Below, piece after piece: positions 10,577-61,215 of a stretch of DNA of 64,000 nt. Numbering within the stretch: position 1 is the first letter of the stretch; every line of letters starts with the position of its first letter. The translations under genes and the position numbers were made by a program. This DNA comes from Escherichia coli (lineage in GTDB: Bacteria > Pseudomonadota > Gammaproteobacteria > Enterobacterales > Enterobacteriaceae): the NCBI RefSeq assembly GCF_044324785.1, contig NZ_CP172127.1. One strand, given 5' to 3'. The notes beneath the pieces are model-generated. The model was not told the origin of the DNA. It saw only the letters and a program-made list of their open reading frames with translations, and ran no database searches.

Positions 10577-11542
10577 TCATCCAACCCGCTGCTTATCATG
10601 CCGATAATTCACCCAGGCGTTGATAATAAACGTCATCACCAGAATGCCAAACACCACGCCCAGCGAGACGGCGATTGGAATATGGTAGAAGTCGACAATC
10701 AGCATCTTGATACCGATAAACACCAGAATCACCGCCAGGCCATATTTGAGCATCGAGAAACGTTCTGCTACGCCCGCCAGCAGGAAATACATCGCACGCA
10801 GGCCGAGGATCGCAAACAGGTTTGAGGTCAGCACAATGAACGGGTCAGTGGTCACGGCGAAGATAGCCGGAATGCTATCCACGGCGAAAATCACGTCGCT
10901 CAATTCCACCAGAATCAGCACCAGCATCAGCGGCGTGGCATACAGCAAGCCATTCTTACGCACAAAGAAATGCTCGTTGTCGATGGTGTCGGTCATGCGC
11001 AAATGACCGCGCAGCCAGCGCACCAGCGGCTTGTCGCCAATGCCTGATTCATCTTCATGGGCGAGCGCCATCTTCACGCCGGTAAACAGCAGGAAGGCAC
11101 CGAAGATATACAGGATCCAGTCGAACTGCGAAATCAGCCAGCTGCCAGTGAAGATCATGATGGTACGCAGAACAATCGCCCCGAGCACGCCATACACCAG
11201 CACGCGCCGTTGTAATGCCGCCGGAACAGAGAAATAGCTGAACAACATCAGCCAGACAAAGACGTTATCGACCGCCAGCGATTTCTCAATCAGATAACCC
11301 GTGAGAAAGGCCAGTGCCTGTGGATCGGCAACGGCGCGACCTTCGGTTTGCACCAGATACCACCAGAAAGCGGCGTTAAACAGTAACGACAGCGTCACCC
11401 AGACCAGCGACCAGGCCGCAGCCTGTTTCATGGTCATGGCATGTGCCCCACGACGCCCCTGCAACAACAGGTCGATAGCCAGCATAATGGCGACAACAAC
11501 AGCGAATCCGCCCCATAGCAACGGCGTGCCGACAGTATTCAT
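10577..11542 (-). CDS. alx: TerC-family inner membrane protein Alx
   Basis: 321-aa polytopic membrane ORF; recalled Alx. Confidence 0.9.
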
Positions 11543-11599
11543 AGAAGTTCCTTACACATAAAAAAAACGGCCAACGTCGGAAGACGTCAGCCGCTGCTT

Positions 11600-11760
11600 T
11601 TTATGCATAGACCTCGCCTTCCGGCAAGGTCTCACTTACAACAAAAAAGGAATACGTCTGCGTATTCCTTTCGGGTTGCCCGGTGACCGGATGTGGTTTT
11701 TCACACATCGTAATGACGATCGACCGGCAATGAAGTTACTCCCCTTTGCAGGTAACAAAG
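11600..11760 (-). promoter_or_regulatory. alx 5' leader, probable yybP-ykoY (Mn2+) riboswitch / pH-responsive element
   Basis: Upstream of alx on the minus strand; contains the ...aaaggggagtaac... core typical of yybP-ykoY leaders; E. coli alx is known to carry such a leader; boundaries approximate. Confidence 0.45.
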
Positions 11761-11825
11761 TATGACAGACCATTCAGTCAGTCAATGGTCTGTTACATGC
11801 CTTTTACACTGCTTTACGGTAACCA

Positions 11826-12812
11826 TTATTGTTTTACGCTATCTGCCGGAAAAATCACCCCAGTCTGGCGGCGGATCTCAGTCAGCAGTTTGGCGGTGAT
11901 GCGACTGACCGCCAGCCCTGGATGATCCACCAGATGTTCATCCACCAGTTCAGCAAACAGCTCTGCTTCGTAGAGCATGGTATTAATATGCTGCGGTTGG
12001 GTGAGATCCTGCATCTGGCTGCCACGCGGCACAAAACACACTTTCTGGCATTCAGACAGTTTTTCAATCACCAGCGATCCCGCTTCGCCCTGAATCTCGC
12101 TTGCCAGGACAGAATCACTCACTTTTGAGTGCTGCAACGTAACGCTGAAATCACCGTAATCCATCACCACCACGCCGTGGGCATCTACGCCGCTTGCCAA
12201 CAAACTGGCGGTTGCCTGCACGCTTTTCGGCTCACCAAATAACGCCACCGCTGACGCCAGACAGTAAAAGCCGATATCCATAATCGAACCGTTAGAGAAT
12301 GCCGGATTAAAGGTGTTGGGATTTTCACCATCCAGGTAACGTTGATACCGCGAGGAATACTGGCAATAGTTGAAAAAGACTTTACGCAGTTTGCCGACTT
12401 TCGGCAGCGCCTGGCGCAACAGATGAAAGTTCGGCAGGTAGGCCGTTTTAAATGCCTCAAACAGCACCACCTGATTTTCCCGCGCACAGGCAATGGCGGC
12501 ATCCACTTCCGCCAGATTCGATGCCAGCGGCTTCTCGCAAATCACATGAATTTTGTGGCTAAGGAAAAGTTGTGTCTGGGAAAAGTGCAGGGCATTTGGG
12601 CTGGCAATATACACCGCGTCAATGGCATCGCTTTCTGCCATCGCTTCCAGCGAGGTAAACAGATGCTCGACAGAAAAATCATTGGCGAAGTGCTGGGCCT
12701 GCTCAAGGCTGCGGGAATAAACGGCGGTTAACTTGTATTTACCGCTCTCATGGGCGGCCTCGACGAACTGGCGAGTGATCCAGTTCGTACCAATCACAGC
12801 GAAACGTATCAT
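11826..12812 (-). CDS. ygjR: Gfo/Idh/MocA-family NAD(P)-dependent oxidoreductase YgjR
   Basis: ORF 11826..12830, start trimmed to MIRFAVIGTNWITRQF; Rossmann N-terminus. Confidence 0.85.
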   Translation of the reverse strand: MIRFAVIGTNWITRQFVEAAHESGKYKLTAVYSRSLEQAQHFANDFSVEHLFTSLEAMAESDAIDAVYIASPNALHFSQTQLFLSHKIHVICEKPLASNLAEVDAAIACARENQVVLFEAFKTAYLPNFHLLRQALPKVGKLRKVFFNYCQYSSRYQRYLDGENPNTFNPAFSNGSIMDIGFYCLASAVALFGEPKSVQATASLLASGVDAHGVVVMDYGDFSVTLQHSKVSDSVLASEIQGEAGSLVIEKLSECQKVCFVPRGSQMQDLTQPQHINTMLYEAELFAELVDEHLVDHPGLAVSRITAKLLTEIRRQTGVIFPADSVKQ

Positions 12813-12890
12813 AACGCGTGGATACTCCATAAAGGGATTCTGTCGTCAATGTAGCACGCCTTTTTCATCTTCGACGTGCGCAGATACGCA

Positions 12891-35086: not shown

Positions 35087-35162
35087 TGGTGGCCCCTGCT
35101 GGACTTGAACCAGCGACCAAGCGATTATGAGTCGCCTGCTCTAACCACTGAGCTAAGGGGCC
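35087..35162 (-). tRNA. ileX: tRNA-Ile(CAU), lysidine-modified minor isoleucine tRNA
   Basis: Minus strand reads GGCCCCTTAGCTCAGTGGTTAGAGCAGGCGACTCATAATCGCTTGGTCGCTGGTTCAAGTCCAGCAGGGGCCACCA: 7-bp acceptor stem, CAT anticodon, encoded CCA end. Confidence 0.9.
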
Positions 35163-55943: not shown

Positions 55944-56022
55944 CCGGAAAGCGGTTCACAGATCTCGCTTCGAACCTGGCAGGCCTATTGACGCTGTTGT
56001 TTTTTCAACCTAGAGTAAAGGA

Positions 56023-56166
56023 ACAAGGGTAAGGGAGGATTTCTCCCCCCTCTGAATTGGTTGTTAATAAGCCTGGAAACTTACTAGTAACAACACAATC
56101 AGTATGATGACGAGCTTCATCATAACCCTTTCCTTCTATAAGGCCCCTTCCTCGGGAGGGGCTTTC
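56023..56166 (+). ncRNA. Sib-family antisense sRNA (SibD/SibE-like), copy 1
   Basis: Near-consensus promoter TTGACG-17 nt-TAGAGT at 55988-56016; transcript would fully cover the ibs ORF on the opposite strand; GC hairpin + U-run at about 56142-56165; ends approximate. Confidence 0.55.
56064..56123 (-). CDS. Ibs-family hydrophobic toxin peptide (19 aa, MMKLVIILIVLLLVSFQAY), copy 1
   Basis: Minus-strand ATGATGAAGCTCGTCATCATACTGATTGTGTTGTTACTAGTAAGTTTCCAGGCTTATTAA; typical Ibs length and composition. Confidence 0.7.
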   Translation of the reverse strand: MMKLVIILIVLLLVSFQAY

Positions 56167-56398
56167 CCGTTTCAGCTCCTTGCTGACTCCCCGATTGTTG
56201 ATGAGCGCCAGACCCCGCGCAACGCTTTCCCAGAGGCAGTTTTCCTTTCCCCGAGCGGTCACGCAAAACGTTGCAACAGCCTGATCATTTGCACCTTTTA
56301 GCGGAACGCAGATATAAAAAATCCCCGGTTTTTTGGGCCAGGGATATGTGTTAATGAAACCTTCTTGACGCTGTTTTTTTTTCAACCTAAAGTAAAGG

Positions 56399-56542
56399 AA
56401 CAAGGGTGAGGGAGGATTTCTCCCCCCTCTGATTGGCTGTTAGTAAGCGTGGAAACTTATCAGTAACAACACAATCAGTATGATGATGAGCTTCATCATA
56501 ACCCTTTCCTTATACAAGGCCCCTTCTTCGGGAGGGGCTTTC
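56399..56542 (+). ncRNA. Sib-family antisense sRNA, copy 2
   Basis: Promoter TTGACG-17 nt-TAAAGT; hairpin + U-run at about 56518-56541; antisense to second ibs ORF; ends approximate. Confidence 0.55.
56440..56499 (-). CDS. Ibs-family hydrophobic toxin peptide (19 aa, MMKLIIILIVLLLISFHAY), copy 2
   Basis: Minus-strand ATGATGAAGCTCATCATCATACTGATTGTGTTGTTACTGATAAGTTTCCACGCTTACTAA. Confidence 0.7.
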   Translation of the reverse strand: MMKLIIILIVLLLISFHAY

Positions 56543-61039: not shown

Positions 61040-61215
61040 GAATCCGCTTATTCTCAGGGCGGGGCGAAATTCCCCACCGGCGGTAAATCAACTCAGTTGA
61101 AAGCCCGCGAGCGCTTTGGGTGCGAACTCAAAGGACAGCAGATCCGGTGTAATTCCGGGGCCGACGGTTAGAGTCCGGATGGGAGAGAGTAACGATTCTG
61201 TCGGGCATGGACCCG
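61040..61215 (+). promoter_or_regulatory. FMN riboswitch (RFN element) in the ribB leader
   Basis: Conserved RFN blocks agggcggggcgaaattccccaccggcggtaa ... agcccgcgagcg ... ggtgtaattccgg ... gccgacggttagagtccggatgggagaga upstream of ribB. Confidence 0.75.

Follow-up and report, generated by a model that had tools for sequence, protein, structure and literature searches.

We are highly confident that the 208-nt stretch upstream of alx (11750-11543, minus strand) is the alx-type Mn2+ riboswitch leader of that gene, the RNA also known as SraF or PRE, and that it works by the mechanism proposed below. This is known biology, and we claim nothing biologically new. An earlier note on the window (by which we mean the whole 64-kb stretch of DNA that was analysed) had identified a yybP-ykoY Mn2+ riboswitch here and had called it known biology. 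Our analysis bears this out: L1, L3, P1.1 and P3/P4 are conserved or covarying, and control by Mn and pH is documented in the literature. The note's description of the leader as "typical" of yybP-ykoY is only partly right. The family features are there, but the aptamer is a three-way junction without P2, its L3 is divergent and a terminator lies inside P4. The alx leader is a variant family member that has already been described, and the features in which it departs from the family (the Rfam score and the four-way junction) lie outside the ligand pocket.

The leader RNA was first detected as the sRNA SraF and later characterised as a pH-responsive element, PRE (PMC9472077). In reporter assays alkaline pH increases alx transcription 5-fold and translation 68-fold, 500 µM Mn increases them 2.7-fold and 21-fold, and a deltaPRE construct responds to neither Mn nor pH (PMC10197570). 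The 68-fold alkaline response is lost in the mutant A37U, in which the Mn-coordinating adenosine is changed; pH therefore acts through Mn (PMC12153347). The alx aptamer has been described as a three-way junction without P2 and with a terminator in P4, and its type of L3 as confined to Enterobacterales (PMC12153347). The alx-type three-way junction is treated as a subclass of the family and not as an exclusion from it (PMC12153347, PMC12934788). Terminators B and D and the anti-terminator stem C/D have been described (PMC3874183, PMC9472077), with in vitro termination of about 43-46% at the first (about 108 nt) and about 10-13% at the second (about 190 nt) (PMC9472077). For the alx aptamer, a crystal structure (9JGM) is cited in a 2026 preprint, along with docking that smFRET shows to be stabilised by Mn and an L2 capping loop (C19.G23) that is sensitive to pH (PMC12934788). 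Mn binding, the reporter responses, the termination efficiencies and the crystal structure are all taken from this literature. The published E. coli element and the one in the window are the same; nothing of substance differs.

Position and parts of the leader

Positions 11400-11900 of the window match E. coli strain N3 with 100% identity, and are found with at least 95% identity in 5419 of 5426 complete E. coli genomes. In 5419 of the 5426 the alx locus carries the annotation "TerC family membrane protein Alx", with ygjR and alx as the annotated flanking genes. We placed +1 at 11750 by fitting the published numbering (A11, U35, A37, A137; PMC12153347) to the sequence, and no other +1 fits. 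With this start, the published positions A11, U35, A37, A114 and A137 map exactly onto the window and the AUG falls at +209 (11542). The complete riboswitch element is 11543-11750 on the minus strand. The interval given in the earlier note, 11600-11760, contains the entire aptamer (11750-11623) and hairpin P5, but it leaves out the P6 terminator (11595-11566, U-tract to 11560) and the RBS (11553-11548). The parts of the locus are listed below in the direction of transcription; nt refers to leader numbering.

11826-12830, minus: ygjR coding sequence (Gfo/Idh/MocA family), upstream neighbour on the same strand as alx (ORF list and RefSeq annotation)
11765-11793, minus: conserved 10-bp hairpin with a 9-nt loop, stem 11793-11784/11774-11765, putative ygjR terminator (fold and covariation)
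11759-11785, minus: putative alx promoter, -35 TTGACT 11785-11780 and -10-like CATACT 11764-11759 (published numbering and conservation)
11623-11750, minus: Mn2+ aptamer, alx type, three-way junction, nt +1 to +128 (RNAalifold, pair counts, own covariance model)
11737-11749, minus: P1.1 5' strand (nt 2-8) and L1 5' strand GGAGUA (nt 9-14; A11 = 11740), invariant in 69/69 leaders
11728-11736, minus: P1.2 5' strand (nt 15-18) and the 5 nt C19-G23 in place of P2, the "L2 capping loop" (alignment, RNAalifold; PMC12934788)
11680-11727, minus: left leg, made up of P3.1 (nt 24-34/62-71), L3 (35-41) and P3.2 (42-61) (compensated pairs in P3.1 and P3.2)
11639-11678, minus: P4, or hairpin B, nt 73-112 (covariation; the base CAAC/GUUG covaries)
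Within P4, minus: intrinsic terminator B, core stem nt 83-102 and U103-108 (11648-11643) (terminator scan 11672..11645)
11624-11637, minus: 3' shell, made up of the P1.2 3' strand (nt 114-117), L1 3' strand GAGA (118-121) and P1.1 3' "switch" strand CCUUGC (122-127)
11609-11632, minus: P5, or hairpin C, 10 bp, nt 119-128/133-142, loop GGAA (MFE fold)
11615-11623, minus: 5' strand of anti-terminator stem C/D (the P5/P6 helix), nt 128-136 (covariation; PMC3874183)
11560-11595, minus: P6, or hairpin D, intrinsic terminator, nt 156-185 with a U-tract to nt 191 (terminator scan 11595..11566)
11578-11586, minus: 3' strand of stem C/D, nt 165-173, overlapping the P6 loop and 5' arm (covariation)
11540-11553, minus: RBS AAGGAA, nt 198-203 (11553-11548), and AUG (11542-11540) (MFE fold: paired with the L1 5' strand in E. 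coli)
10577-11542, minus: alx coding sequence (TerC family, 321 aa), the regulated gene (ORF list and RefSeq annotation)

Two small minus-strand ORFs overlap the leader, one of 35 aa (11601-11708) and one of 45 aa (11636-11773). Both were rejected as leader peptides: one starts upstream of +1, and the other starts inside P3.2 with an AUG that is not conserved (where E. coli has GAUGUG, others have GGUGCG or GAAGCG). Elsewhere in the window, Rfam 15 matches at gathering thresholds are two tandem copies of the SIB antitoxin sRNA (55988-56138 and 56365-56514, plus strand; 141.8 and 150.2 bits), an FMN riboswitch aptamer (61046-61194, plus strand; 120.9 bits) and a tRNA gene (35090-35162, minus strand; 73.1 bits) whose anticodon loop CUCAUAA contains a CAU anticodon.

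Comparative evidence for the aptamer fold

The core motif that the earlier note had reported upstream of alx is indeed present. It reads AAAGGGGAGUAAC on the minus strand at 11747-11735, 5' of alx (the plus strand at 11736-11750 is gttactcccctttgc). The AAAGGGGAGUAAC 5' strand pairs with GAGACCUUGC at 11633-11624, the 3' partner stretch being GUGAGACCUUGC at 11635-11624. In the window, GGGGAGTARC-N85-115-GAGACC as a composite pattern is found once, compared to 0.00 expected occurrences in 100 shuffles. Both strands of L1 can be recognized, GGGGAGUA on the 5' side, which agrees with the RF00080 L1 consensus UUGGGGAGUAGC, and GAGA(CC) on the 3' side.

Our comparative sample consists of 80 alx loci from about 35 Enterobacterales genera. 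Protein similarity, at 78-99% identity, was the only criterion by which they were chosen. The element lies 5' of the TerC-family gene alx here and in 78 of the 80 orthologue loci, and in the same 78, L1, the L3 block UCGUCAUUACG and GAGACCUUGCC are kept upstream of the gene. We aligned 69 distinct compact alx aptamers and ran RNAalifold on them without any structural hint. The resulting consensus has 30 pairs, 13 of which show compensatory changes. It recovers P1.1 (2-8/122-127), the L1 internal loop, P1.2 (15-18/114-117), P3.1 (24-34/62-71, with a one-nucleotide bulge), a 7-nt L3 on the 5' side (35-41), P3.2 (42-47/56-61) and a P4 closed by 73-76/109-112. This fold, obtained without bias, is the published three-way junction.

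The "extended pairing potential" of the earlier note is thus borne out by the 30 pairs and their 13 compensations, and also by two controls. In the 69 leaders 99.2% of the aptamer cells are paired, compared to 25-41% when the pairing partners are slid, and 94 cells in aptamer helices are doubly changed, compared to 14+-3 in shuffles. A covariance model that we built from the alx-type alignment (R1) gives this leader 118.7 bits, the leader being itself a training member.

All 13 compensated pairs fall in P3.1, P3.2 and P4. The pairs G2-C127 to G8-C122 of P1.1 can form in 69 of 69 leaders, yet they are invariant and therefore show zero covariation. Because P1.1, L1, P1.2 and the 3' strand G112-C128 do not vary (both AAAGGGGAGUAAC and GUGAGACC, at 11635-11628, are the same in all 69 leaders), there is no covariation to speak for or against these elements. 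P1.1 closes the aptamer, and its 3' strand is shared with P5 of the expression platform in the MFE fold, as would be expected of a switch helix; the 3' shell can pair either with nt 2-8, as in the consensus fold, or alternatively within P5.

L3 reads UCAUUAC (nt 35-41, 11716-11710), with the Mn-coordinating A37 at 11714, and its core G34 U35 C36 A37..A40 C41 G42 is invariant in the 69 leaders. U35-C41 stay unpaired between the covarying helices P3.1 and P3.2, while the 3' strand is continuous (C61, C62), which makes L3 an asymmetric loop. We did not find P2 or a four-way junction: the gap between P1.2 and P3.1 is 5 nt (C19-G23) in all 69 leaders. A gap of this size means that there is no P2 and that the junction is three-way. 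Together, the comparative data provide independent support for the published three-way-junction fold and for stem C/D, which is discussed below.

The B. subtilis ykoY (meeY) and yybP riboswitches and the L. lactis yoaB riboswitch belong to the same yybP-ykoY family. They have four-way-junction aptamers and act mostly through terminators and antiterminators. As ykoY also encodes a TerC-family protein, the pairing between the riboswitch and the TerC gene family is ancient. Another comparison is the E. coli mntP (yebN) aptamer (RF00080, PDB 4Y1M). Like alx, it has an L1 of GGGGAGUA(G/A)C and GAGACC, a P1.1 helix that serves as the switch, helices P3.1, P3.2 and P4 and an L3 with a conserved A on the 5' side, and it is a translational ON switch by which Mn2+ regulates an Mn exporter (PMC12153347). 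Unlike alx, mntP has P2 and hence a four-way junction, its L3 is ACAUACU instead of UCAUUAC, it has no terminator in P4, its expression platform is a different one and it does not by itself respond to alkaline pH. The two aptamers are not mutually detectable by covariance models.

Within the alx type, P4 is hypervariable. A terminator-like P4, with a GC-containing stem and a U-run (11643-11672 here), is found in only 11 of 79 leaders: in Escherichia, some Citrobacter, Pseudocitrobacter, Kluyvera, Leclercia and Raoultella-like leaders. In the other leaders P4 can be anything from a 5-bp mini-hairpin to about 60 nt. REP- or ERIC-like insertions of about 170-370 nt occur at P4, 300-460 nt upstream of the ATG, in leaders from E. 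albertii (L005), Siccibacter colletis (L014) and "Enterobacter pulveris" (L037). In these three leaders L1, L3 and the 3' shell are intact; in E. albertii the P4 hairpin is duplicated along with the repeat insertion. P4 seems to be a site where insertions are readily tolerated. Other ERIC-like elements, about 130-150 nt long, sit in the expression platform, after or within P6, in Phytobacter diazotrophicus (L027) and Erwinia persicina (L047), where more than 300 nt separate the aptamer from the start codon. The element can also be lost. In Atlantibacter sp. RC6 (L025), at about -110 to -1 from the ATG, L1 (GGGGAGUC) is fused directly to CUUGCCGGAAGGCGAG, the aptamer core having been deleted between repeated CUUGCCG, a natural loss of the sensor. 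In Rouxiella aceris (L076) the aptamer core is absent and only a P6-like terminator hairpin is left.

Expression platform, proposed mechanism and promoter region

Left unconstrained, the leader takes the OFF state as its MFE fold (-97.0 kcal/mol), about 16 kcal/mol more stable than the fold in which the aptamer is enforced (-80.6 kcal/mol). In the OFF fold the left leg is intact, the 3' strand of P1.1/L1 is held in P5, a long P6 carries the terminator (its extended stem spans nt 143-197, 11608-11554) and the freed L1 5' strand pairs with the RBS region (nt 198-208). The terminator scan picked out two terminator-like sites, 11672..11645 at P4 and 11595..11566 at P6.

In an alignment of 70 distinct expression platforms, 91.8% of P5 cells are paired with an invariant core, and 95.7% of P6 cells are paired with 2 compensated pairs; P5 is present in 57 of 73 orthologue MFE folds. 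The third helix, stem C/D (128-136/165-173), has 99.4% of its cells paired, compared to 45-64% when slid, and 3 compensated pairs, among them G130-C171<->A-U in 11 sequences. Stem C/D and the P5+P6 pairings are mutually exclusive. In the OFF fold the nucleotides of stem C/D form the P5 and P6 loops. That the two loops covary is direct evidence, drawn from comparison, that the alternative ON structure exists.

The pairing between L1 and the RBS is a different matter. In E. coli, for which RBS occlusion by this pairing has been published, the duplex has -8.6 kcal/mol and a z-score of -2.2, whereas the mean z over 79 leaders is -0.12. Conserved occlusion of the RBS by L1 was not found across genera: of 73 orthologue MFE folds, 17 have the SD paired to L1 and 30 leave it unpaired. 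Because the pairing is not conserved, we do not claim occlusion as a general step. Among the 79 leaders the P6 terminator and stem C/D are universal, unlike the L1-RBS pairing (11540-11553 with 11733-11743).

These observations fit the following mechanism. Nucleotides 1 to about 128 fold into the three-way-junction aptamer, with P1.1-L1-P1.2 as one leg and P3.1-L3-P3.2, stacked on P4, as the other, and Mn2+ is held between L1 (GGAGUA/GAGA) and L3 (UCAUUAC, A37), as the literature on binding indicates. In the OFF state, without Mn2+, P5 would capture the 3' strand of P1.1/L1, the terminator hairpin P6 would form and the L1 5' strand set free in this way would, in E. coli, cover the RBS. Alkalinity of the cytoplasm raises Mn2+, and at high pH the aptamer is also more sensitive to it. 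With Mn2+ bound, P1.1 would stay closed and nt 128-136 could pair with 165-173. The stem C/D formed in this way would break P6 and leave the RBS open, so that Alx, a TerC-family Mn exporter, is made. The choice between ON and OFF would be made co-transcriptionally, and the two internal intrinsic terminators in P4 and P6 would lower read-through. The parts of this scheme that we computed ourselves are the motifs, the covarying aptamer helices, the exclusion between P5+P6 and C/D, the terminator-like hairpins and the MFE OFF fold. To some extent the E. coli mechanism may hold in other genera as well.

According to the earlier note, a ygjR terminator hairpin precedes the leader. A hairpin is there, about 30 nt past the ygjR stop, and it is a real conserved structure. 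Across 77 leaders 67.4% of its cells are paired (33-42% slid), 85 cells are doubly changed (42+-7 in shuffles) and its covariation score is 0.305, compared to 0.11-0.13. Its role as a terminator is less certain. In E. coli the region has a fold z-score of only -1.27 and no strong U-tract, the terminator scan does not call the hairpin, and it overlaps the -35/-10 elements of alx; nevertheless, a terminator function is a reasonable inference.

The hairpin encloses the alx -35 box. In the same 77 leaders the TTG of the -35 is invariant and the following A nearly so, and T44, A45 and T49 of the -10 region are invariant. A -35/-10 pattern is present in 71 of 78 leaders. These hexamers probably form the alx promoter. 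A simple promoter scan found no minus-strand promoter, because the -10 match is too weak and the spacer is short. The putative ygjR terminator and the alx promoter are superimposed (11759-11793), with the U-rich tail of the hairpin doubling as the -10 region.

The Rfam model, rival readings and annotation

The earlier note had proposed to check its call by an Infernal scan with the Rfam yybP-ykoY model, and to take the lack of a covariance-model hit as refutation. The scan indeed fails. RF00080 gives no match in the window at the Rfam 15 gathering threshold and none when the 451 bases around the leader (11450-11900) are searched at E<=10, it has 0 matches on 20 alx-type leaders of different species, and PGAP annotates no riboswitch at alx. 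The weak Rfam matches to STnc370, STnc240, RydC and ncS011 (E 0.4-9) were dismissed, as they reflect only the two terminator hairpins. For a positive control we took the mntP leader of E. coli K-12: RF00080 matches its aptamer with 41.6 bits (E 5.7e-10), short of the gathering score of 45. The displayed model ("Manganese", 177 positions) has the L1 5' strand unpaired, followed by P2, P3/L3 and P4, without P1 pairs, and it needs P2. The misses on alx and on 20 orthologous leaders, the sub-threshold mntP and the silence of PGAP make the negative scan a blind spot for the subclass. The RF00080 miss at alx is a false negative, and a systematic one for the alx type; the Rfam score reflects the limits of the RF00080 model and not those of the alx RNA. 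As a refutation, a missing hit is unsound, because it would wrongly reject a correct call and RF00080 under-scores even mntP. In the reciprocal direction, an R1 search of the mntP locus with default filters found nothing. With filters off the top match was the mntP aptamer, at a non-significant 5.9 bits (E 0.17) and aligned only via P1.1/L1/P1.2.

One could argue from these searches that the alx leader has no yybP-ykoY kinship at all and that the GGGGAGUA/GAGACC likeness is convergent or due to chance. The missing RF00080 match, the non-significant reciprocal match, the lack of P2 and the different L3 all point in this direction. Yet we give this reading next to no credence. The motif pair is not expected by chance (0.00 in shuffles), and alx and mntP share the same order of elements: L1 5' strand, P3.1, a 5'-side L3 with CAU..AC, P3.2, P4 and GAGACC. 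The gene family under control (TerC/YkoY) is the same too. In the filters-off search of the mntP locus the alx model picks out the mntP aptamer as its best match, via P1.1/L1/P1.2, RF00080 has no P1 pairs and scores even the crystallised mntP aptamer below threshold, and the Mn response and structures have been published.

It is also conceivable that the leader responds purely to pH: alkaline pH would lengthen RNA polymerase pausing at two sites and so steer the fold without a ligand, and the yybP-ykoY likeness would be vestigial. This is the original PRE model, in support of which the pause-site mutants A132G, C135U and A137G raise expression (PMC3874183), and the 2026 preprint describes a direct pH effect on the aptamer via the L2 loop (PMC12934788). 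However, alkaline pH shortens the pauses instead of lengthening them (PMC9472077), at neutral pH Mn is by itself enough to raise translation 21-fold (PMC10197570) and A37U abolishes the 68-fold alkaline response (PMC12153347). L1 and L3 are also invariant across about 35 genera, as is expected of a ligand pocket. The model is highly unlikely, and as the sole mechanism it is largely refuted. A stand-alone sRNA as the main product seems to us extremely improbable. In that case the terminated RNA of about 108 or 190 nt would act in trans and the effect on alx would be secondary. SraF was first detected as an sRNA (PMC9472077), and two efficient internal terminators yield discrete short RNAs. But the literature cited here on the alx leader reports no trans target of SraF, 78 of 80 orthologues have the element directly 5' of alx, the terminator inside P4 is found in only 11 of 79 leaders, and the phenotypes of deltaPRE and A37U are cis effects.

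For annotation, the alx leader should be labelled as an Mn2+ (yybP-ykoY, alx-type) riboswitch at 11543-11750, minus strand, with internal terminators that end near 11643 and 11560. Pipelines that take "no covariance-model hit" as refutation would discard the alx riboswitch, although it has been studied experimentally and a crystal structure of it is cited in published work. As to the evolution of the subclass, we offer a tentative idea that we regard as possible but doubtful. In most Enterobacterales the alx-type switch might work mainly as a terminator/anti-terminator (P6 versus stem C/D), while L1-RBS occlusion and the P4 terminator might be later additions in Escherichia-, Citrobacter- and Kluyvera-like lineages, and the ygjR hairpin might couple read-through from ygjR to the activity of the alx promoter.
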